A DNA stretch of 37,260 nt, taken from UHGV virus genome UHGV-0198360. One strand, 5' to 3'. The stretch's first letter is position 1. Each line of letters starts with the position of its first letter. The position numbers and the translations under genes are program-made. This DNA comes from a virus. Of the stretch, positions 2,093-35,286 are shown one piece after another. The notes under the pieces are model-generated. The model did not search any database. It was not told where the DNA came from and saw only the letters and a list, made by a program, of their open reading frames with translations.

Positions 2093-4813
2093 TTATGTCC
2101 AGCGTCCAACGACAACGCGACCACCTCCCGAGAGATTTACAGTGATCCCGTTGCCGTCAATGCGAGTAACGTTATTCACTCCGTTAAATGCAAACTCACC
2201 ACTGTCGGCATAGAGTTTTCCATGGAATTCTGGGCTACCAGATTTCGGTAAATTCCATCCACGCCCACCACCACCGGGGACGAAGTTCGCAGACTGAAGT
2301 GAGTCGGTAATTTTCGCAAAATCGATGGATGCTTCCTGAATTAATGCGCTGCGAATAAATACCTGCCCGTTATAGACAAAGAATGCAGCCTGCCAGTTAC
2401 CTGGATTGTTACCGGAGTAAATACCGAACTGATCGGCGGCAAATACAACTGTGGATTTATAGCTGTTTCCTGATGGCTCAATAGACATGCCAAATCCGGT
2501 ATTGTATTTAACACCGTCTCGCACAATGCCCATATTCAGGGTGTAAGAGGCTTTCGCTGTTCCGTCACTTTTTACTTCAGCCGTCATTTTCTGGTTGACC
2601 GCAGAAGTCAGGCTTCCTTCCGGTCCTATTTGAGCCTGTACATAGGTGGATAAATCAGCAAGCCCCTGCTCAGCAGTAGCCACCGTGGTTTTTACGACCA
2701 GAATATCAGCGCGTACCTCACCATATTGTTGATACTGATGCTCAACGGAGCCATGATTAGCCAGCGCATTTTCCATAATGCCTTCCAGGTTAGTATCAAC
2801 CCCGGCCTTAATATTCTGGAACGCGTCAGAGTTCTGAATCTGATCATCTATGATGTCAATCAGCCCGCCCGTGTCCATAGAGCACAACGCCGGAACTTCG
2901 ATAAAACCAGATGCACCAAAGGCGTTAACCGTTCTGATGTACCAGTAATAGGTATGTCCAACCTGTAGCTGATTGCTTGTCCATGTGGTTCCCATGCCTT
3001 CGCGGCTTGCATTCCCTTCCACGGTCGCTGTTGAGGTATCAGGTAGTTTCGTTTCACCTGAAGTCCAGAAATCAAACTGCGTGGAAACATTAGTGATCGC
3101 CGCCAGACGCGGGATCAGCGTGACGGCAAAGAAGCCCTGCTCAATATCTACATGGGAAGGTGCTGGCGGGGCTTCAATGCTGAATTCCAGATACCCTTCT
3201 GGCGACTCTGCCCCCATCTGGTTTACAGCAATAACGTGGGCTGTGTAGGTATTTTTCGGTAACCCGGTAAGACGCGTGAACGTCCCCGGAACCTGGACTG
3301 ACATCACCATCTGACCATTGCGGCGAATGACCACTTTGTTGTAGACCACCTGACCGATGTTTTGCCAGGACAGAATGCCCTGCACGACCTGGCCAATTTC
3401 TTCCACGGTGTACTTCAGATTCTGCGGCTGCGCCACTCCGCCTGATGGCAACTGGGTGAACGGCGGCCGCTCAATCGGTTTACCAACAGCGTCGCCCCAG
3501 ACATCTGCGGTTTCCTGCTTCAGCGTCAGTTGCACGCCATTCTGAACGCCGAACTTCCAGTCAGTTACCCGCATCTCAACATTCATGATACCGATAGACG
3601 GGAAATTCACCTTCACATACATTCCCGGGCGGTAACGGTACCCGCTCAGGTTTAACGTAACGTTCATGGTTCTGGCGATGCGGGTGCGCTTTAACTTCAC
3701 ATCTGCCAGACGCTGGGCCTGAAATTCAGAGGTCACAAATCGCAGCTTCATATCCTGCGATATTTCCACGCCGTCTTCCGTCACCCATTCACTGACAGAC
3801 ACAGAAGGGAAATCCGCTTCGGTATAGCCTTGCTGCGGATCGACAAATGTCCCCTTGATAGTGTTAACACGTTCCGCCTGAGAGACTTCCGGCATGATTT
3901 CGATATCACCGGCCAGCTGGCTCTCAGTGATCACCTCTGTCGCAGGACCATAATAAGCCCCGACCAGAAGGCCATGTTTGCCCGCGGTATACGTTACATC
4001 CCCGGCGCATGCTGCCAGCATCCCTTCCAGAATACTGACCTTGTTTTCACTGAGGTCGAACTCACCGTTGATGGTATAGCGCTTCTCAACGGTATTACCG
4101 CCAGTAATCACATCCTCATCACAGATATTCGCCGCTTCCTTAAACTGGTCCCAGAGAATATCGGTGTCGGGCACTTTCAGGTAATTGCGGTAATAGTCCA
4201 GGATAACCAGCGCCGCATTGTTGCTGTAACCCGCCAACCCGGTACGCGGGTCATAAACGGCACGCCCCTGTTTTTCTACTTTGATGTTAGGGATACCTGC
4301 CGGGAATTTTTCAGCGTTGAACTTCAGGGATACGCGTAGCCAGGTGATCCCTTTCCCGATCATGTCTTCTTTCCATGACGGGCAGTTTTCCAGCATGTAA
4401 GGGTCCGCCGTCTGGCGGTTGGTGTGCACCTCGAAAAAGGCATGCTCAGGATAGCTACTGATAGGCTCATCACCCAGCCAGACAGTCTGCACACCGGATA
4501 ACGGGTGCCCCGCCAGAGCAATGGCCAGATGCAACATTTCACCATCATCCTGTTCGCCAGCCTGCTCTTCGGAAAAGAACAGAGTGCCAGCAGATGTGGA
4601 ACGACCATAAACAACGGTTTTGGCACTGGCCGCTGCGCGCAGAACCTGTTTGCGTTCAGACGTATCACGGTAGGAATTCAGCGATGGGGTCTTGGTCAGC
4701 GCCTGAGTGGCAATCTGTGCGGCGACGGTGATAACCATCGCAATGGCATACATTTCATTTGCCGCTGCCACACCTGCGGCAATGGTGGCAACTATAGGAA
4801 CAGCAGCAGGCAT
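2093..4813 (-). CDS. Tail tip / host specificity protein (J-like, 906 aa)
   Basis: Large ORF at the distal end of the tail module; start ATG overlaps upstream stop (TAATG); size and position typical of central tail fiber / host specificity proteins. Confidence 0.75.
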   Translation of the reverse strand: MPAAVPIVATIAAGVAAANEMYAIAMVITVAAQIATQALTKTPSLNSYRDTSERKQVLRAAASAKTVVYGRSTSAGTLFFSEEQAGEQDDGEMLHLAIALAGHPLSGVQTVWLGDEPISSYPEHAFFEVHTNRQTADPYMLENCPSWKEDMIGKGITWLRVSLKFNAEKFPAGIPNIKVEKQGRAVYDPRTGLAGYSNNAALVILDYYRNYLKVPDTDILWDQFKEAANICDEDVITGGNTVEKRYTINGEFDLSENKVSILEGMLAACAGDVTYTAGKHGLLVGAYYGPATEVITESQLAGDIEIMPEVSQAERVNTIKGTFVDPQQGYTEADFPSVSVSEWVTEDGVEISQDMKLRFVTSEFQAQRLADVKLKRTRIARTMNVTLNLSGYRYRPGMYVKVNFPSIGIMNVEMRVTDWKFGVQNGVQLTLKQETADVWGDAVGKPIERPPFTQLPSGGVAQPQNLKYTVEEIGQVVQGILSWQNIGQVVYNKVVIRRNGQMVMSVQVPGTFTRLTGLPKNTYTAHVIAVNQMGAESPEGYLEFSIEAPPAPSHVDIEQGFFAVTLIPRLAAITNVSTQFDFWTSGETKLPDTSTATVEGNASREGMGTTWTSNQLQVGHTYYWYIRTVNAFGASGFIEVPALCSMDTGGLIDIIDDQIQNSDAFQNIKAGVDTNLEGIMENALANHGSVEHQYQQYGEVRADILVVKTTVATAEQGLADLSTYVQAQIGPEGSLTSAVNQKMTAEVKSDGTAKASYTLNMGIVRDGVKYNTGFGMSIEPSGNSYKSTVVFAADQFGIYSGNNPGNWQAAFFVYNGQVFIRSALIQEASIDFAKITDSLQSANFVPGGGGRGWNLPKSGSPEFHGKLYADSGEFAFNGVNNVTRIDGNGITVNLSGGGRVVVGRWT

Positions 4814-5211
4814 TAACGTACCCTCCAGACACTCAACGGTTTAACCCGCAGACTGACAAGACCAGTTTCGCCAGGCACCCACACAACGCCGGAATACACC
4901 ACCCCGGCACATCGCGCCCCGGCATTTTCAATCACGGCAATATCCCCACGCTGCGCCAGTTTCACAGGCACCTCGTCGAGATAACGGGCCAACACCTTTT
5001 CAAGCGAACCGCCACCGCGCAATATCGCCTTTTTCGCCCCATGCTCACTGTCGTAGGTTCCGCGCCAGCCTGCTGCAAAATCCTCGCCGCACATGGCCTG
5101 AGCACAGTCCGCCGCGAACAGGCAGCAGTCATGACTGCCCCATAAAAAAGGCCGCTTTTCAGCGGCCCTTATTACAGTGATTAATCTGTTATGCCAGTCC
5201 GGATGCTTCAT
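4813..5211 (-). CDS. Tail protein, possible NlpC/P60-like cysteine peptidase (132 aa)
   Basis: ORF track; Cys-rich motif GSHDCCLFAADCAQA; position immediately upstream of J-like gene as in GTA/HK97-like tail modules; SD GAGGAAGC before ATG. Confidence 0.5.
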   Translation of the reverse strand: MKHPDWHNRLITVIRAAEKRPFLWGSHDCCLFAADCAQAMCGEDFAAGWRGTYDSEHGAKKAILRGGGSLEKVLARYLDEVPVKLAQRGDIAVIENAGARCAGVVYSGVVWVPGETGLVSLRVKPLSVWRVR

Positions 5212-27262: not shown

Positions 27263-29076
27263 GCCACCTCCTGCTGTTGCACTGCACACAGTTCCGGAAG
27301 ATTTGCCTCCACCAGCGCCCTGGCGAATGGTGGTGGTACCGCATTACCGCAGCGGGCTACCTGCTTATCTTTTGCATAGAGATTTCCACGGTAGTCCTGA
27401 TCAATAACGTAACCATCCGGGAAGCCCTGCGCTTTGTAGAGTTCATGCGGCTGCAACATGCGCATTCCGATATCAACGATCTGGTATTTAACCCCATCGA
27501 TCGTTACCAGCCATTCATCGTCACTTTCCCCGCAATACGTCTCGAGAAATGTGCGTACCTCACCCACGTGTTGGCCACCAGCGGTGATTGTTGGCATTGG
27601 CACATCAAGGCGTTGCCCGTCGCGGCATGTTCCACGCAGTTTCACCAGATGAGAGGCAACTACCGCATGATGGTCGACAGTGGTCACTGAATGCGCGGGT
27701 TCATCCATACTGACACCCGGCCCCGTATAGTTACCGCCGTAGTGTTTCGCCAGGAACGCGCCCACCAATTGTGATTTACCGCCACCACCAGCTGTAATTG
27801 TGGCGCTCGGTTCGTCTGCCCGGTGGCCGACGCTGGCCCCAAACTGGCGGGCTATCACTGGCGCAACAAGACAGGCGCGGGATTGCTTCAGAATGGTATG
27901 AGCAGGTTTATCCAGCGGGCGCGGTTTAGCCTGGTATTCACTACCACCATTACCCGCCAGAAATGGTGTTAGTGCAGCCTCAACAATCCCGAGAGCATGC
28001 CCATTCCCACCCGGACGTTTTGATGTGCCAGCGGTTACCGTCGGGACAGGTTCGGTAACGGGCTGCCCGGTTGCGCCAGTGCGGAATTTTGTCAGATGTG
28101 GAACAGCTAACGCGTAACCGTGGGTTTTAGTAATAGTTTGCAAAGGCTCGTCCAGCTTCTGACCGCGGAAACAGTCGTAACTCGTTTTGGTGCTGGTGTG
28201 ATTGCACTTCACGATAAACGGCGACGCACTTTCGATAACAAAGCGCTGTATGCCGCGCGCGATCCGCTTCAGAGTGTTCTCCGCCAGCGGTTTTTTGCGG
28301 TCGAAGATGGACAGGGCCGGAACATTCCAGTCGATACATTCCGCAGCGGTACGCCATGGCATCAGCCTGCCACTTTGCACCTCCAGCGACTTAGGATCCC
28401 CATGGCTAACAGCAGGCCACTGGATTGGGCAACCATCGCAACGCATAACCATGAAGAAGCGTTTGCGGATCGTCGGCGCGCCGTAATCACACGCGCGTAG
28501 TTCGCGATAATCAACATCATATCCGAGCCCATCCACCAGCTTTTGCGCCTGCTCGCTACCTCTTTCGATAGACAGAAACTCACAAACCTCAGCCAGTGCC
28601 GGGTGATCAGCAGGAATGCCAGTGGACAGCATGCCGACAAATGCATTGAATGTTTCGCCAGTGCGGGCAGGATCCGGACGCATTTCATCGGCCAGCAGCG
28701 GTCCCCACGTTTTGAACTCTTCCACGTTCTCCAGCATCATCACGCGCGGTCGCTTTGCCAGTGCCCAACGCAGAACAATCCAGGCCAGACCGCGTATCTC
28801 TTTTTTCACTGGCTTTGCGCCTTTTGCCTTCGAGAAGTGTCGGCAGTCCGGGCTAAACCATGCCAGGCCGACAGGATTACCGCCGGTGGCAGCTACCGGA
28901 TCCACGTCAAAAACGGATTCACAATAATGCAGTGTGTCCGGGTGGTTCGTCTTGTGCATCGCAATGGCGTTTTCGTCGTGGTTGATCGCAATATCCACGC
29001 TGCGCCCGATCGCCAGTTCAATACCCGTTGATGCGCCACCGCCACCAGCAAAGTTATCAACAATAATCTCACGCAT
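27259..29076 (-). CDS. DNA cytosine-5 methyltransferase (605 aa)
   Basis: ORF track; motif I DNFAGGGG, PC motif region SPDCRHFS, ENV motif MLENVEEF. Confidence 0.8.
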   Translation of the reverse strand: MREIIVDNFAGGGGASTGIELAIGRSVDIAINHDENAIAMHKTNHPDTLHYCESVFDVDPVAATGGNPVGLAWFSPDCRHFSKAKGAKPVKKEIRGLAWIVLRWALAKRPRVMMLENVEEFKTWGPLLADEMRPDPARTGETFNAFVGMLSTGIPADHPALAEVCEFLSIERGSEQAQKLVDGLGYDVDYRELRACDYGAPTIRKRFFMVMRCDGCPIQWPAVSHGDPKSLEVQSGRLMPWRTAAECIDWNVPALSIFDRKKPLAENTLKRIARGIQRFVIESASPFIVKCNHTSTKTSYDCFRGQKLDEPLQTITKTHGYALAVPHLTKFRTGATGQPVTEPVPTVTAGTSKRPGGNGHALGIVEAALTPFLAGNGGSEYQAKPRPLDKPAHTILKQSRACLVAPVIARQFGASVGHRADEPSATITAGGGGKSQLVGAFLAKHYGGNYTGPGVSMDEPAHSVTTVDHHAVVASHLVKLRGTCRDGQRLDVPMPTITAGGQHVGEVRTFLETYCGESDDEWLVTIDGVKYQIVDIGMRMLQPHELYKAQGFPDGYVIDQDYRGNLYAKDKQVARCGNAVPPPFARALVEANLPELCAVQQQEVA

Positions 29077-30391
29077 GGGTTACCCCCTGCATGCTGCCGA
29101 CAAGACCACGCGCAATTGTGATGATTTCGCTGGTGGCCGTTCGTTCCAGCCAGAGTTGATTGATGTTGGCTTTCAGCTTGTTCTGCTGTGATTCATCCAG
29201 CATGTCAGCGCCGTCTACCTGGTCGAATACAATTCCAACCTCCAGCGGCCAGATACGGGACTCGGGAAGCGGATCCGATACTGGTTTAGCTTTCTCACGG
29301 ATGTGCATGCGGATCTGGCGAATATTGGACCAACTGGAAACATCCAGGCTTCCCATAGCTGCAATGAAATCAGTACTGTTCATGCCATATTCACCAGATG
29401 CTTCGAGGGCAACAGTACGAATACGTTCCGACATATCCAGGCGCGCAGCAGCGTCATCGAATTCAATCGACAACAGCCACTCATCCACACCGAACAAAAT
29501 ACTCTCACGAATAAGCAGCTTCGCTTTGTCGATCGTTAATGGTGATACCTGAGTGAATTCCGGTGCTTCGACAGAATCCGCCGCCCAGGTATGCCCAAAC
29601 TTCGATTCACTGAATGTGTATTCTTCTTTATCGCCGAACGCAGCTCTAACGCATGCCCACGCCTCGACACCGCTGATATCAAAAATATCTTTCTGGGTAA
29701 GTGGCAACTCTGCTTCTGGCTTGTCAGCTACAGATGGTATGGCAGTTGCAGGTTGAGACTTGCTGGCAGCAAATTGCGCCAAAGTCATAAACGCCCGCCC
29801 TTTTGCCTCCAGTTCAGTACGGTTGATATAGCTGAACCGCTCACCACGCCATGAGTTATCGAATACAGCTATGGCACCGGCAAAAAACGCGCTGGTGGGC
29901 TTCTGTTTTTCGTCAGCAGGTACAAACCACACTGGCAGATCGAACCCAATGCGCCCGCGAATGAATACAATGTGATCGGCATCTTCCGGCCACCACGTTT
30001 CACTTGGCGCGGCTTTTATCAGGAATACATAGCGACCGCCCTTCTCGCGCTGGGCTGCTGCGTACTTCATGATGTGCGTCATACCAGTGATCGCCTGTTT
30101 CTCGTGGTACTGCGAACGGCTATACGGTGGGTTGCCATAACCTGCACCACCCAGTTCTGCCAGACGTTCAGACCAGTCCTGGGTCAGCGCGTTATCTTCG
30201 GCGGTGTACCATGCCGGGCATTTCGCGTTGTCGTCGTCAGCAAACAAGTCCAGAACTAATGGGCCAAATAACGCGTTGATCCCCCAGAAAAGCAGATCAG
30301 GTGTCCTCCACTGATCTCCAACTTCTTTCAATTCGTGAGCTGGTTTACTGCGCAGTTCTGCCAGCGCCTGGCAATATTTATTTGGCATCAT
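29069..30391 (-). CDS. Phage Dam-like N6-adenine methyltransferase domain fused to a ~250-aa domain of unknown function (440 aa)
   Basis: ORF track; NPPY motif (GYGNPPYSRS) in N-terminal third; C-terminal part unrecognised; ATGA overlap with upstream replication gene. Confidence 0.6.
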   Translation of the reverse strand: MMPNKYCQALAELRSKPAHELKEVGDQWRTPDLLFWGINALFGPLVLDLFADDDNAKCPAWYTAEDNALTQDWSERLAELGGAGYGNPPYSRSQYHEKQAITGMTHIMKYAAAQREKGGRYVFLIKAAPSETWWPEDADHIVFIRGRIGFDLPVWFVPADEKQKPTSAFFAGAIAVFDNSWRGERFSYINRTELEAKGRAFMTLAQFAASKSQPATAIPSVADKPEAELPLTQKDIFDISGVEAWACVRAAFGDKEEYTFSESKFGHTWAADSVEAPEFTQVSPLTIDKAKLLIRESILFGVDEWLLSIEFDDAAARLDMSERIRTVALEASGEYGMNSTDFIAAMGSLDVSSWSNIRQIRMHIREKAKPVSDPLPESRIWPLEVGIVFDQVDGADMLDESQQNKLKANINQLWLERTATSEIITIARGLVGSMQGVTHA

Positions 30392-31254
30392 GAGCGGAAC
30401 CCCGAATTTTCTGGCAGTGAATAGTCAACATTTTGGAAGTTGGCGCGGCTGGCTGAGTTAGTCGCCCATTTACCGTTAACGCGTTCAGGTCGCCCAGCGG
30501 CAGACCATTTGGTCGCGCTTTGCAGGTAACCGGGGAAGTTTTTTGGAATAAACAGAGTTGCCGGGCGGAGGTATTGAGCCTGCTCGCTATCACGCCAATC
30601 AGCGTTTTTGTAATCCACCACAAGGCACAGATCATCAACAGTGAACTGTTCCCGCAGACGGGCGCGAATGTTCTCCAGCGACGTGCTGCATACCTGGTAG
30701 CGTGAACCAGTTGTCTGGTTCAGGTAAGACAAAACCTGTCTGGCCTGATCAGTAATCACAACCTCAGGGTCGGGTTGCGCCGCAACCGGACAAGAGGGTT
30801 TTGAAGTTACTTGTGGATCTTGTTTTGATTTTACTGACGGATCCCCGCCAGATTCTGACGGGTCAAAACCGCCTTTTTTGCCAGATTTCGACGGGTCAGT
30901 TTTTGAGGCGTCAAAATTTGATGCGTCAGATTTTGACGTGTCAGAATCTGACAGTTGAGAAAATGCGGCAGCCTGAAGTTTCGCCACATTCAGGCGGTAC
31001 ACGTTCGAAGCATTACGGTTACCATTACGGCGCTGTGTACGCGTGAGCCAGCCATCTTTTTCAAGCTTTGCGATTGCCGTTCTGATAGTGCTCGGCCCTG
31101 CGCCAAGCTGGCGAGCAATAGTTTCAATGGACGGCCAGCACACACCCTCATCGCTGCTGAAATCAGCGAGACGGGCCATGATCGCGACACTAGACAACTT
31201 CATGCCCGACGCCGCGCAACCATCCCATACGTAGCCGGTTAATTTAGTGCTCAT
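30388..31254 (-). CDS. Replication initiator (lambda O-like; N-terminal HTH, C-terminal conserved phage domain) (288 aa)
   Basis: ORF track; SD GGGAGAT; N-terminal winged-HTH-like region; internal iteron array encodes a low-complexity linker (SDSDTSKSDASNFDASKTDPSKS). Confidence 0.7.
   Translation of the reverse strand: MSTKLTGYVWDGCAASGMKLSSVAIMARLADFSSDEGVCWPSIETIARQLGAGPSTIRTAIAKLEKDGWLTRTQRRNGNRNASNVYRLNVAKLQAAAFSQLSDSDTSKSDASNFDASKTDPSKSGKKGGFDPSESGGDPSVKSKQDPQVTSKPSCPVAAQPDPEVVITDQARQVLSYLNQTTGSRYQVCSTSLENIRARLREQFTVDDLCLVVDYKNADWRDSEQAQYLRPATLFIPKNFPGYLQSATKWSAAGRPERVNGKWATNSASRANFQNVDYSLPENSGFRS
30826..30953. repeat. Iteron-like repeat array (candidate origin of replication) inside the initiator gene
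   Basis: Copies of the ~12-bp motif GATTYYGACGKG at 30851, 30883 and 30928, plus palindromic TCAGAATCTGA and TCAAAATTTGA elements. Confidence 0.55.
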
Positions 31255-31423
31255 GATCGTCCGTTATCTCCCTGAACTTTTGCCTGAAATGCTCAAGTGG
31301 GCTGAAGCATTCGTGTGGATATCCATCACGCAGGTAGATAACGCGCTGTGTTTCTGGCTCCCAGCGGATAACACGAACTGGCACTCCGCGATGATCTTTG
31401 AACCTTCGGTTAAGTTCGCGCAC
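31244..31423 (-). CDS. Possible small protein (~59 aa, GTG start) between YdaT/CII-like and initiator genes
   Basis: Hand-translated frame (VRELNRRFKDHRGVPVRVIRWEPETQRVIYLRDGYPHECFSPLEHFRQKFREITDDHEH*); SD GGAGGG 10 nt upstream; below the ORF-track length cut-off. Confidence 0.3.
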   Translation of the reverse strand: MRELNRRFKDHRGVPVRVIRWEPETQRVIYLRDGYPHECFSPLEHFRQKFREITDDHEH

Positions 31424-31595
31424 AGGCGTTTTGCCCTCCGGTTGTAGACCCCCACAATTGAAACCGCCCTACTGTGGTTACACGGAACCCAGCGGTTTGA
31501 TAATCTGCGTTCATACCGAAACAACGGAGTACCCGAAACCGGGATCATCCTGAGTTGCGGTAGACGGTTAAAAGCCGTTAAACTGCTCATGCGGA

Positions 31596-32147
31596 TTATT
31601 TCTCCATACTCGAAGAGTTGTTCGCCAAGGCGCCCGGAGCTGCACACTCGCGGGCGTCACTCTTTTCAGCGACACAAAAAACTCGATAAAGAAGCGCTAC
31701 GTGCTCCTGGAACTTCGCGATAACCTGATAGCTGTTTTCCTCAATCTGAGCGCGCTCATCTGCGTCAATCACCCCATCAGCCGTGGCTTTACGTACAAAA
31801 TTAGAATGACGGCCTATCCATTCGATGGACTCCATCAGGCGCTGGTTGATATCGGCGTTATCCAGATCATCAACATCTGCCAGCGGTACAAATACGCCCT
31901 GAGAATGGCGCGCAACGGCATCAGCGATATGAGTTGAACCACCAGCACGTTGTAAAACCATTGCCCAGCCCAGCGGGAAGATCTGATCGCCGTCAACACG
32001 AAGGCGGTTAAACAATGCGTTCTCTGTCACACCCAACCATTCCGCCGCCTCGGCATAACCACCAGGTAGATCGGTGATCGTTTTTTTTATCGCGGCCACC
32101 AGCCAGGCTGGCTGACGTTCGACTTTCCAAACAGGTTCGTTACCCAC
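31596..32147 (-). CDS. YdaT / CII-like regulatory protein (183 aa)
   Basis: ORF track; GTG start with SD AAGGGG; HTH-like segment AEWLGVTENALFNRL; second gene of the rightward early operon after Cro-like gene. Confidence 0.5.
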   Translation of the reverse strand: MGNEPVWKVERQPAWLVAAIKKTITDLPGGYAEAAEWLGVTENALFNRLRVDGDQIFPLGWAMVLQRAGGSTHIADAVARHSQGVFVPLADVDDLDNADINQRLMESIEWIGRHSNFVRKATADGVIDADERAQIEENSYQVIAKFQEHVALLYRVFCVAEKSDARECAAPGALANNSSSMEK

Positions 32148-32175
32148 GGTTAACCCCTTAATTCTGTGGTTTTAA

Positions 32176-32373
32176 TCACGCAGCCGAGTGGCTACGCTTT
32201 TCATAAAGTGATTGGTCAACTTTCAATACACCTTTGGTCAGCGCTTGGATCTCAAAAGCTCGTCCCTTTGGAATAATTTCATCCCATCCCGACACGGACG
32301 CATGAGAGATATTCAAAGCCTTAGCGGTTTTCCCTACGCCACCGAAGTAAGAAATAACGTCATTCTTTTTCAT
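32176..32373 (-). CDS. Cro-like repressor (YdaS-type HTH protein, 65 aa)
   Basis: ORF track; HTH GGVGKTAKALNISHASVSGW; divergent from cI across an operator region. Confidence 0.7.
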   Translation of the reverse strand: MKKNDVISYFGGVGKTAKALNISHASVSGWDEIIPKGRAFEIQALTKGVLKVDQSLYEKRSHSAA

Positions 32374-32472
32374 TTTTCCCTCTGGAGTTAAGTAATGCAG
32401 TGCACTGATAGTAGGATATCTTACATTGATTGGTCAAGCACTCCTACATCAGATAATGGTAGGATTACCTAC
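32374..32472. promoter_or_regulatory. Divergent promoter/operator region (OR-like; PR for cro, PRM for cI)
   Basis: Minus strand TTGACC - 18 nt - TACTAT upstream of cro; plus strand GATAAT about 15 nt before the cI start; operator-like ATAGTAGGATATCTTACATT (32408-32427) and inverted TCCTAC...GTAGGA (32442-32464). Confidence 0.55.
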
Positions 32473-33129
32473 ATGAAAATGAATGATCGAATCCGAAGCA
32501 GACGAAAAGAGCTAAAGATGACGCAATCCGTCCTGGCAAAGCTCGTCGGGGTTAATCGCGTCACTATCACCGGTTGGGAATCCGGTGACTACAAACCGGG
32601 TGGTGAAAACCTCCAGGCGCTTGCGGCTGCATTAGAAAAGACACCGCAGTGGTTACTGGATGGAAAGGATGATGGAAGTCAGCAGCCACCAACTATGGAC
32701 CCGGAGCAAAGATTCGGAATTAGGTCAGTTCCCGTTCTCACATGGGTACAGGCCGGGGAATGGACGGCCAATTGCGTAGCGATCACAGAGCGGGACATTC
32801 ATGACTGGGTCTATACTTCGGCTGCCGTTTCTGAAAGTGCATTTGCACTCATTGTTCGCGGCGACTCGATGACCAACCCTACAGGTGCACCAAGTATTCC
32901 CGAAGGTTCTATTGTCGTTGTAGAACCTGATTTTGGTGATGCCAGTCAAGCTAATGGTAAAATTGTTATTGCACAGCTTATGGGCAGTGATGAAGCCACT
33001 ATTAAAAAGTTCGTCATCGATGGGCCGCTGAAATACCTAGTACCTCTTAACCCCAATTACAGGACTTTAGAAGTCAATGGCAACTGCCGATTGGTAGGAT
33101 TAGTAAGACAAGTAATAATGGATTTATAA
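32473..33129 (+). CDS. CI-like repressor with LexA-type S24 autopeptidase domain (218 aa)
   Basis: Track ORF trimmed to ATG at 32473 (SD AGGA); N-terminal HTH (MTQSVLAKLVGVNRVTITGWE), C-terminal S24 motifs (GDSM, KIVIAQL). Confidence 0.8.
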   Translation: MKMNDRIRSRRKELKMTQSVLAKLVGVNRVTITGWESGDYKPGGENLQALAAALEKTPQWLLDGKDDGSQQPPTMDPEQRFGIRSVPVLTWVQAGEWTANCVAITERDIHDWVYTSAAVSESAFALIVRGDSMTNPTGAPSIPEGSIVVVEPDFGDASQANGKIVIAQLMGSDEATIKKFVIDGPLKYLVPLNPNYRTLEVNGNCRLVGLVRQVIMDL

Positions 33130-33130
33130 G

Positions 33131-33156
33131 AAAACCGGGAATACCCGGTTTTTTTT
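33131..33156 (+). terminator. Intrinsic terminator after cI
   Basis: Hairpin ACCGGGAATACCCGGT followed by T8. Confidence 0.65.
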
Positions 33157-33162
33157 CGCCCC

Positions 33163-33219
33163 TCAATGTAAGTTATCCAACATTTCCACTTGACCCCAAA
33201 TAGTAAGTTATCCTACATT
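33163..33219 (+). promoter_or_regulatory. PL/OL-like promoter-operator region
   Basis: TTGACC (33190-33195) - 18 nt - TACATT (33214-33219); operator-like repeats AATGTAAGTTATCCAACATT (33165-33184) and ATAGTAAGTTATCCTACATT (33200-33219) resembling the OR site. Confidence 0.55.
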
Positions 33220-33324
33220 AATAACATTAACAGCGAACGGGCAGGACGCCCACGAAGTAGCCGCCGGTGGCGTATGAATAACCGGATGATTCGCTGAGCA
33301 TGACTAAAAACTGAGGGTTACACG

Positions 33325-33537
33325 ATGAATGCAGCACAACGGCGCAAGGCTTATCGCAAGCACCCCAAGGCTGGGGAAGTGGTGGTTTTACGTGGGGTTC
33401 CTCGCACAGTTCTGGGACCGTGCATGTTCAATATCTTTACCGGCGAAGAACGCAGCAAGCCATCAGTGAACCGCGTCAAGGTACAAATGACTGGCGGTTC
33501 TACAGCTGCTCCACTGATACGCAATTTGACGTTTTAA
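33325..33537 (+). CDS. N-like antiterminator candidate with arginine-rich N-terminal motif (70 aa)
   Basis: ORF track; SD GAGGG; N-terminus MNAAQRRKAYRK resembles lambda N ARM (MDAQTRRRERRAEK); first gene downstream of PL-like promoter. Confidence 0.5.
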   Translation: MNAAQRRKAYRKHPKAGEVVVLRGVPRTVLGPCMFNIFTGEERSKPSVNRVKVQMTGGSTAAPLIRNLTF

Positions 33538-33766
33538 CAGCAGACAGGTGTCTTCGGGAGGGGTAACAGAGGCGCGGCCTGATTAACCGCAACTCATAGT
33601 CAAATTCCTATAGCTGGTGGCGATACCCAAGCCAGGAATACCAAAACCAGCAGGAGTGTTAGGGAACAGGGTCAATCCCCCCCCTTAGCACCCCGCCCGA
33701 AGATACCTACCACCGCGCCTGATGTGGTTAAAAGCAGGCCAAAGCAATAACAAGTAACTCCCTGTT

Positions 33767-33815
33767 CTGGCGGCCCGGTGTTTTCCCGTTTGTCCGGTCA
33801 CCGCCAGCCTTTTTC
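33767..33815 (+). terminator. Candidate tL1-like terminator downstream of N-like gene
   Basis: Inverted repeat CTGGCGG...CCGCCAG with internal CCGG/CCGG stem, followed by CCTTTTTC. Confidence 0.4.
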
Positions 33816-34154
33816 AGGGCACAACGACGAGAGCATTGACGAGCAAGGCATAAGTGCTGGTTCGATTCCAGACAGTCCCATTCAGTTGGGAGGGTTGGGC
33901 AGGGAAAAGGTTCGTTCGATTCGAACACCGGCAGTGCTCTCTTCGTTGTGGTGAATGCGCAGGCTGATGCGCTAAACCGTGAGGGAGTGTCCCGAAAGGG
34001 TGCGTCACTGGTAATCAACCCATGCCGGAATATCGCAGTACCGGCCACCACAACCAAATCACGCTTAGGACCGTGATAACCGTAGTTCCAGTATTGCTGT
34101 GAGTAGTCTTGGCGGTACCAGGGTCTTCAACCTTATGCAAGGGGGACGAAGATA

Positions 34155-34382
34155 ATGTTCTACCTCGGTACCGCCCTTTTTACGCAACAGAAAAGGGCAT
34201 CACCGGGCGACGGGCTCATAACCCAATCCACCCGGGCAAAAAGAAAGCGGTATCTGCAAGCCGCCGACCAATGCAGGTGCCCTTCTCTGTTGTGTATGGA
34301 GAAAGTTCGGCGGTGGCAGCCGCCACAACTTCGTGTATGGACTAAAACCTTGTGCAGAGGAAAGTTAAATGAAATTACCTAA
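34155..34382 (+). CDS. Possible small basic protein (75 aa) upstream of rdgC
   Basis: ORF track; SD GGGGGA 8 nt before ATG; stop overlaps rdgC start; composition somewhat atypical. Confidence 0.3.
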   Translation: MFYLGTALFTQQKRASPGDGLITQSTRAKRKRYLQAADQCRCPSLLCMEKVRRWQPPQLRVWTKTLCRGKLNEIT

Positions 34383-35286
34383 GTTCCGTAACGCAATCGT
34401 GTACCGCGCCACACTACCTGGCATTGAAGCAATTGAAGGCCATCTTCTCGAACTCCCCTATTCTGAGATAGGTGAGACTGAATTGTCGCGAACATCTTTT
34501 GTGCCTAATCCAATCACCGGCGAACTGGTTACCCCTATTACTGGCGGTTACGCCATAGTTGTACGTCGCGATCAGAAAATTATTCCGCAGCATGTGCTTA
34601 TGAAAGAAGCCACGGCACGTATTCAAAATATTGAGAACATGTCCGGGCATAAATTAAAACGTGCCGAGCGTTTAGCCATTATTGATAGTGTTCTGGCGGA
34701 GTTATGCAAAAAAGCATTTGTGAAGTCGACGCTGATCCTGGCGCTGTATAGCACTGATGAAAAATTACTGGTGATTAACACGACCAACAAGCAAATCGCC
34801 AGCATGGTGTGCGCAATGCTGATTAAGGTTGTCGGTTCAGTGAAAACAGAAACAATCAACATTAGTGATATCAAGAATGGACTGACTACACGCCTGAAGA
34901 ACTACATCAATGGTGCAGCCAATGCATTCGAAGGATTCACTGTCGGGAATTATATTCAGCTATCACGCTACGCAGATCAAAAGGAAGTTATTCGCTACTC
35001 AGCTGAGCATGAGTCAATTCAAAGCGAACTGGCCGATAGCCTTAGTAGTAGTTTCACTGCTGATAAAATGGAGTTATCCGGTTGCGGTGTGACCTTCATT
35101 CTGACCGAAAATTTCCATTTTTCGCGCATCAATACCCAATCTCAGACATTTAATGATGAAGATGACAAAGCATTCCAGTGGCGTCATCAGGCAGGCGCTG
35201 ACCTTTTCCAATTCAGCAAGGTAGTTAATTTGATGTGTGACCTTCTTTCATACAAAGAAGAACAGCCACAAAAACCAGCAGCATAA
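34369..35286 (+). CDS. rdgC: Recombination-associated protein RdgC-like (305 aa)
   Basis: ORF track; SD GAGGAAA; size (~303 aa) and N-terminal pattern (MKLPKFRNAIVYRA...) matching RdgC-type proteins. Confidence 0.6.
   Translation: MKLPKFRNAIVYRATLPGIEAIEGHLLELPYSEIGETELSRTSFVPNPITGELVTPITGGYAIVVRRDQKIIPQHVLMKEATARIQNIENMSGHKLKRAERLAIIDSVLAELCKKAFVKSTLILALYSTDEKLLVINTTNKQIASMVCAMLIKVVGSVKTETINISDIKNGLTTRLKNYINGAANAFEGFTVGNYIQLSRYADQKEVIRYSAEHESIQSELADSLSSSFTADKMELSGCGVTFILTENFHFSRINTQSQTFNDEDDKAFQWRHQAGADLFQFSKVVNLMCDLLSYKEEQPQKPAA

Follow-up and report, generated by a model that had tools for sequence, protein, structure and literature searches.

The arrangement studied here has its closest described counterparts in prophage e14 of Escherichia coli K-12, in phage 186, in the Rac prophage and in the circuit of phages lambda and P22. 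It lies in UHGV virus genome UHGV-0198360, a viral stretch of 37,260 nucleotides that is referred to below as the window, and it comprises two helix-turn-helix (HTH) open reading frames (ORFs) of 65 and 183 residues which, in agreement with an earlier note on this DNA, fill positions 31,596 to 32,373, both on the minus strand. The same layout is found in e14 (ymfK / ymfT-ymfL-ymfM), i.e., a divergent repressor, a small Cro-like gene, ymfL and ymfM; YmfL is common in Enterobacterales prophages, including e14. In lambda and P22, the site recognized by the CII protein is a direct repeat, TTGC-N6-TTGC. In phage 186 (apl-cII-fil, with promoter pE), the cII gene is directly followed by fil, which encodes a small division inhibitor, as ymfL is followed by ymfM in the window. 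The CII protein of this phage is an activator of cI and a substrate of FtsH and RseP, which degrade it via its C-terminal part; without its C-terminal residues the protein is stabilized (PMC7708051). The site of 186 CII, taken here from the GenBank annotation of phage 186, is ATGTTTG-N13-CAAACAT, with half-site centers 20 base pairs (bp) apart; it overlaps the cII start and serves the leftward cI promoter. Finally, in Rac (racR / ydaS-ydaT) and in CP-933P, YdaS and YdaT occupy the same Cro and CII slots beside a divergent repressor, a genetic context on which their toxin-antitoxin label has been disputed in favor of Cro and CII equivalents (PMC5917428), and YdaT is described as a functional CII equivalent that binds an inverted repeat (PMC9986795).

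In this work, we compared the two genes of the window with these systems by protein family, structure and comparative genomics analyses. The 65- and 183-residue proteins probably serve a lambdoid prophage as its Cro and its CII-position regulator, respectively, the second one, YmfL, acting as a 186-CII-like activator of two leftward promoters through a pair of conserved inverted repeats. The earlier note had proposed that the pair resembles YdaS/YdaT and serves as the lysis-lysogeny switch, as a growth-inhibiting module, or both. Its placement of the pair was borne out, since the two genes are the first two behind a PR-like promoter, divergent from the repressor, and thus stand where a lambdoid immunity region has its Cro and CII genes; they are most likely part of the lysis-lysogeny switch. 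The early operon that it calls rightward runs on the minus strand here and is rightward only by the lambda convention. The label of the second gene is corrected, as it is of the YmfL/186-CII type and not of the YdaT type, and the toxin idea fits, if anywhere, the ymfM gene that follows.

Identity of the two proteins

In a comparison with Pfam, the 65-residue protein matched P22_Cro (PF14549) with 75.4 bits (E-value 2.9e-21; residues 2-59 against 1-58 of the 60 profile positions), the gathering cut-off of this family being 30.2 bits. It also aligned end to end with the P22 Cro structure 1rzs (E-value 7.3e-11, residues 1-59) and falls in PHROG 409, and exactly this sequence is known from Citrobacter freundii and relatives, where it is catalogued as a "Cro/CI family transcriptional regulator". 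By its sequence, the protein is therefore a member of the P22-type Cro family. Its score on YdaS_toxin (PF15943), 26.6 bits, is under the gathering cut-off of 30 bits, and BLASTP returned no alignment with YdaS of the K-12 Rac prophage. Rac YdaS itself matched both families (YdaS_toxin, 107.7 bits; P22_Cro, 36.8 bits); the two families are therefore related, and the YdaS resemblance put forward earlier stands at superfamily distance only. The window also differs in this gene from e14, whose YmfT is YdaS/XRE-like and showed no BLASTP similarity to the 65-residue protein.

The 183-residue protein was assigned with 187.5 bits (E-value 9.7e-56) to the NCBIfam YmfL equivalog family NF041471, whose curated cut-off is 90 bits, and it shares 64% identity over 173 residues with YmfL of K-12 e14 (BLASTP, E-value 1e-85); the exact sequence is already annotated as YmfL family in C. 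freundii. Further, it belongs to PHROG 101, "CII-like transcriptional activator" (E-value 1.4e-58), and matched Phage_CP76 (PF06892), the Pfam family of 186 CII, with 39.1 bits against a gathering cut-off of 26 bits (E-value 8.6e-10; residues 18-149 against 5-139 of the 146 profile positions). An AlphaFold2 model built from 30 homologues, with a predicted local distance difference test score (pLDDT) of 67, displays an N-terminal five-helix HTH bundle followed by two long helices, and is disordered from residue 157 to its end. A sequence search of the Protein Data Bank (PDB) gave no match for the protein, and in a Foldseek search of the PDB the top eight matches of the model were all chains of 186 CII (6vli, 6vpe and 6vmh; E-values 7e-3 to 0.2, TM-scores 0.33-0.68). 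The sequence and profile matches show that the protein is orthologous to e14 YmfL and belongs, at a distance, to the 186 CII family; the latter relationship is real at the profile level.

Conversely, the similarity of this protein to YdaT claimed in the earlier note did not hold by any approach: BLASTP against Rac YdaT gave nothing significant (E-value 4.8), YdaT_toxin (PF06254) was not matched at an E-value of 0.01 or below, the YdaT structures 8bt1 and 3c4r were not among the top 50 Foldseek matches of the model, and hhalign of a YmfL alignment with the single YdaT sequence gave a probability of 0.5%, too weak to use. As to the alignments with YdaS, YdaT and 186 CII which that note had suggested as a check, BLASTP found nothing significant for all three, so that YmfL was the one informative BLASTP comparison, and the likeness to 186 CII emerged from the profile match to Phage_CP76.

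Conserved repeats at both edges of the ymfL-ymfM module

For comparison, 80 YmfL-encoding loci were fetched from species-representative genomes, and repeats were counted over 73 loci (455 kb). When the ymfL starts were aligned, homology began abruptly at AACCACAG, 18 nucleotides (nt) upstream of the GTGG that holds the GTG start codon, which is almost universal among the loci. The resulting inverted repeat, CCAC-N18-GTGG, occurs at this position (site 1) in 71 of the 73 loci, 69 of them with the 18-nt spacing, and again 681-700 bp farther downstream, inside the ymfM core (site 2), in 66/73; just 5 other matches were found in the 455 kb of loci. The window contains 2 matches, against 0.57 expected. 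In its 6-mer form, CCACAG-N14-CYGTGG, the half-site centers are 20 bp apart. Both repeats are shared by e14 (positions 4247-4272 and 4945-4970 of locus L001; 1203246-1203271 and 1203944-1203969 of the record). Where ymfM is missing from a locus, site 2 is missing as well but site 1 is still there, so site 1 is tied to ymfL; it forms the left edge of the ymfL module, and the ymfL-ymfM module has one of the two repeats at either edge. Under site 2, the synonymous positions of ymfM are fixed (AAC 57/57, CAC 66/66, GTG 66/66), whereas neighboring third positions are randomized. The left arm, xTAACCACA, fits 7/9 positions of the consensus DnaA box, TTATNCACA.

Predicted leftward promoters linked to the repeats

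A hexamer of the form TAnnnT lies at a fixed distance leftward of the repeats. At site 2 it was found at offset 23 in all 63 unique sequences, and at site 1 at offset 23 in 54/70, with 14 additional sequences having it at offset 22 or 24, the background rate of TAnnnT being 4.4%. As a control for common ancestry, unrelated cro 3' ends were clustered at <55% identity, and TAnnnT was present 22-24 nt from the repeat in 30 of the 32 clusters; no TAnnnT signal was found in the mirror direction. At site 2, the TA of the hexamer is supplied by ymfM codon 33, which is always NTA (GTA in 45/45). In e14, the leftward hexamer TAATCT is present at the end of ymfT. The -35-like elements are poor at both positions (GTTTTA at the first, GTTACA at the second). 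A promoter scan at the second position returned GTTACA-16-GATAAT; the start of this predicted promoter would be at ~31513, antisense to ymfM and ymfL. From the sequence comparisons we infer that the two repeat-linked TAnnnT elements are predicted YmfL-activated, PRE-like promoters.

Independent inheritance of cro and ymfL

In nearly all loci the gene order comprises a divergent repressor (160-250 residues), a small Cro-like gene and ymfL, and the order repressor, Cro-like gene, ymfM preceded by ymfL, and DUF4222/replication recurs in at least 70 independent Enterobacterales loci; the arrangement is therefore not a chance pair of ORFs. The Cro-like partner of ymfL, however, changes from locus to locus: among 72 partners, 32 matched P22_Cro, 43 YdaS_toxin (these sets overlap), 21 HTH_3 and 2 lambda Cro. 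Identities to the window proteins are uncoupled as well, with Cro 95% and YmfL 60% identical in one locus (L053), and Cro 55% and YmfL 88% identical in another (L005). In addition, the homology of the window to E. coli prophages in megablast stops at ~32170-32173, between cro and ymfL and at the edge of site 1. Taken together, the swapped partners, the uncoupled identities and the homology break show that cro and ymfL are separate mosaic modules, and not a cognate pair.

The earlier suggestion of a toxin-antitoxin-like or growth-inhibiting pair, in which one protein poisons the cell and its partner or the divergent repressor restrains it, is weakened by this mosaicism and appears very improbable. 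The names of the related Pfam families, YdaS_toxin and YdaT_toxin, and the sub-threshold YdaS_toxin match of the 65-residue protein speak for it; de-repression of Rac ydaS/ydaT is moreover reported as toxic, and lambda CII is toxic too when over-produced, as cited in PMC5917428. The 183-residue protein, however, has no YdaT similarity, and the label is itself contested for YdaS/YdaT (PMC5917428). A type II toxin-antitoxin module would call for a specific cognate pair, whereas members of at least four Cro families occur as partners of ymfL and the two genes are not co-evolving. A defense-system scan with PADLOC gave no match, and over-expression of e14 YmfL left cells at normal length (3.5 µm), with no filamentation, whereas ymfM produced filaments (bioRxiv 10.1101/2020.11.19.390815).

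ymfM and the overlapping DUF4222 gene

The apparent 172-bp "gap" after ymfL is occupied by a ymfM-like ORF with 39% identity to K-12 YmfM (BLASTP, E-value 2e-14), and both proteins fall in PHROG 1170 (E-value 4.2e-14 for the window ORF). The conserved core of YmfM consists of the N-terminal ~57 residues (MxSLT..LPQLR.IPV.G..FRYER..S.RWV.CNHSRA..IVGV) and stands directly after ymfL in ~66 of the 73 loci; the co-inherited pair is therefore ymfL-ymfM, and not cro-ymfL. Growth or division inhibition arising from this region would thus be expected from the ymfM homologue rather than from the cro-ymfL pair. A relationship of YmfM to 186 Fil was considered and rejected (E-value 0.045, different PHROGs).

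The C-terminal half of ymfM overlaps the DUF4222 gene out of frame for ~160 nt, and the annotations conflict, as K-12 lists ymfM only and the Prokaryotic Genome Annotation Pipeline (PGAP) lists DUF4222 only; the PGAP annotation of an E. coli relative carries the same DUF4222 gene. Of the 45 unique DUF4222 genes, which are phylogenetically related sequences, 32 have a ymfM frame that runs on uninterrupted to 45 nt or less before the DUF4222 stop, against a chance expectation of ~7% obtained by synonymous recoding, suggesting that both overlapping frames, the ymfM tail and DUF4222, may be kept. Among the loci with the YmfM core, some have ymfM ORFs of only 59-71 residues and no DUF4222 gene after them. 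Because of the out-of-frame overlap, the published ymfM clone also held most of the DUF4222 ORF, and the conflict matters for the question of which product is behind the SfiC filamentation phenotype.

Proposed mechanism and alternative explanations

According to the reading that we favor, Cro would share its 14-bp palindromic operators with the divergent LexA-like CI and, bound to them, turn down PRM and PR. YmfL, by analogy with 186 CII, would be an unstable oligomeric activator for the establishment of lysogeny, binding CCACAG-N14-CYGTGG at the GTG start of its own gene and, ~690 bp farther downstream, in ymfM, and thereby switching on two weak leftward promoters. The first promoter would transcribe antisense through cro into cI, like lambda PRE and 186 pE, and the second one antisense through ymfM and ymfL; the conserved disordered tail of YmfL (ARECAAPG) may act as a degradation signal, like the C-terminal part of 186 CII. 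The circuit would thus be like that of lambda and P22 in its CI, OR, PR, Cro, CII-position gene and predicted promoter reading back through cro into cI, and differ from it in its CII-position protein, which has no relationship to lambda CII or P22 C1 and whose predicted site is an inverted and not a direct repeat.

Several observations weigh against an activator of the 186 CII type working at these repeats. The likeness to 186 CII is found at the profile and fold levels only; BLASTP gave an E-value of 11, so there is no pairwise similarity between the two proteins, hhalign of the YmfL alignment with the single 186 CII sequence gave an E-value of 0.17, too weak to use, and the model has a moderate pLDDT of 67 and weak Foldseek E-values (7e-3 at best). 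The arms are asymmetric beyond the 4-bp core, the left one being nearly always CCACAG and the right one mostly CCGTGG at site 1, and since the best conserved residues of YmfM are encoded by the motif bases of site 2, constraint on the protein contributes to the conservation of these bases. The hairpin in the sense mRNA at site 2 has a mean of -9.8 kcal/mol, against -5.8 kcal/mol for shuffled sequences, making an RNA role or a host factor possible. By our own count, the repeat center lies near -48, and near -36 in 186 pE; at the 186-like distance, ~10 nt past the repeat, no -10 element was found, the conserved hexamer standing at 23 nt. Phage 186 further differs in its half-sites (ATGTTTG, and CCACAG in the window), in having one site and promoter where the window would have two, and in its first gene, which encodes the Cox-like Apl and not a Cro.

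The position of the repeats would also be compatible with YmfL binding them as a repressor or roadblock that limits how much PR transcription reaches ymfL, ymfM and the replication genes, with leftward promoters that are constitutive or otherwise controlled: site 1 covers the Shine-Dalgarno (SD) sequence and start codon of ymfL, site 2 lies just upstream of the DUF4222 and replication genes, and the repeat center near -48 is unlike that of 186 pE. We regard this explanation as unlikely, given that poor -35 elements, as seen at both leftward promoters, would be expected where an activator is needed, that repeat and TAnnnT keep their 23-nt distance even where the flanking DNA is unrelated, which argues for joint action, and that the nearest characterized relative, 186 CII, is an activator (PMC7708051). 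It is slightly less probable still that the repeats are not YmfL sites at all, being RNA hairpins that gate ymfL translation, sites for host proteins, or junctions promoting module exchange. Such functions would agree with the sense-strand hairpins, which are somewhat more stable than shuffles at both sites (at site 1, -5.2 against -3.4 kcal/mol), with the near-universal GTG start, which in the RNA-hairpin version lies in the stem, with the location of both repeats at the module edges, and with the DnaA-box-like left arm. An RNA element, however, would have just four invariant pairs and an 18-nt loop, its fifth pair is mismatched in 55 of 59 unique site 1 sequences with no compensatory change, and it leaves unexplained why a TAnnnT stands at a constant distance on the opposite strand only; in turn, the 20-bp half-site spacing, equal to that of the 186 CII site, argues for YmfL binding.

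A broader version of the activator reading, which we advance tentatively and consider somewhat less probable than not, is that ymfL and the ymfM core form a portable cassette of ~720 bp with the same 26-bp repeat at both ends, fitting lambdoid phages of any immunity type. Its 186-CII-type activator would drive the two bracketing leftward promoters, giving a cI message through cro and an antisense RNA across ymfL-ymfM, YmfM would arrest division, and the ymfM tail and DUF4222 would be real overprinted genes. If true, this would be the first mechanism for the widespread YmfL family. The switch itself is ordinary, and both proteins are already in public databases under Cro and YmfL names; the repeats and hexamers provide a testable model for YmfL and, because they are present in e14, this model can be tested directly in K-12.

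Organization of the immunity region and additional observations

The features of the region are listed in Table 1, and together they correspond to a standard lambdoid immunity and early region, the host of the prophage probably being Citrobacter. The operator palindrome has 7 matches, against 1.36 expected. The cI start is probably the ATG at 32473, which we preferred since the longest ORF, from 32395, would cross the operators. Downstream, the minus strand carries the DUF4222 gene, the replication-initiator gene and a Dam-like methylase; the corresponding replication module of e14 is a remnant (oweE/ymfN), while that of the window is intact.

Table 1. Coordinates of genes, promoters, operators and repeats in the immunity region of the window.
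Feature	Position	Strand	Description
DUF4222 gene	31244-31423	-	59 residues; Pfam DUF4222, E-value 4e-17; replication gene (30388-31254) next
ymfM-like ORF	31264-31590	-	108 residues; starts 5 nt past the ymfL stop; homologue of e14 YmfM
Repeat, site 2	31452-31477		Minus-strand sequence AACCACAG-N14-TTGTGG; inside ymfM codons N-H-S...V-G
Predicted promoter 2	31477-31506	+	-35-like GTTACA 31477-31482, -10 TAATCT 31501-31506
ymfL-like gene	31596-32147	-	183 residues; GTG start, AAGGGG ahead; CII-position regulator
Repeat, site 1	32144-32169		Minus-strand sequence AACCACAG-N14-CCGTGG; over ymfL SD and GTG start; predicted YmfL site
cro	32176-32373	-	65 residues; ATG start; P22-type Cro repressor; gene 1 of the PR operon
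Predicted -10 of PRE-like promoter 1	32193-32198	+	TACGCT; predicted start ~32205; antisense to cro, sense for cI
PR-like promoter	32437 to 32408	-	TTGACC-18-TACTAT (-35 TTGACC, -10 TACTAT)
OR/PR region	32408-32472		Between cro and cI; PR and two palindromic operators
OR operators	32411-32424, 32459-32472		14-bp palindrome GTAGGATAnCTTAC
cI-like repressor	32473-33129	+	HTH_3 and Peptidase_S24 (LexA-type, self-cleaving); PHROG 4
OL operators	33168-33181, 33203-33216		Palindrome GTAGGATAnCTTAC again; flank the PL-like promoter
PL-like promoter	33190-33219		TTGACC-18-TACATT

Regarding YmfL, codons 157-183 (31596-31676) encode the tail, which is predicted as disordered (pLDDT <50) and is nevertheless near-invariant as ARECAAPG across genera; it is missing from shorter YmfL variants without ymfM after them, and possible roles are that of a tag for proteases or one connected with YmfM. 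Codons 12-16 of ymfL contain the palindrome CAGCCAGCCTGGCTG, which encodes the near-invariant QP(A)WL. A 15-nt direct repeat, at 32119-32133 and 32216-32230, codes for the similar peptides VWKVE and VLKVD and was treated as chance. No boxB-like hairpin was apparent in the 28-nt spacer between cro and ymfL. Rfam scans (gathering threshold for the whole window; E-value of 1 or below for 31000-34400) and a tRNA scan found nothing.

Beyond the repressor gene, a terminator-like hairpin with a T-run directly follows cI (33131-33155). The first ORF past the PL-like promoter (33325-33537, plus strand, 70 residues) has an arginine-rich N-terminus, MNAAQRRKAYRKHPK, which recalls the motif by which N-type antiterminators bind RNA. 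The ~830 bp upstream of rdgC (33540-34368) hold no plus-strand ORF of at least 80 residues and nothing in Rfam, and in megablast this stretch has only patchy matches, to unannotated stretches of other lambdoid phages. On the other side of the region, the Dam-like methyltransferase ORF (29069-30391, minus strand) encodes 440 residues, of which the Pfam Dam domain covers residues 19-199 only, the C-terminal ~240 residues being without Pfam assignment.

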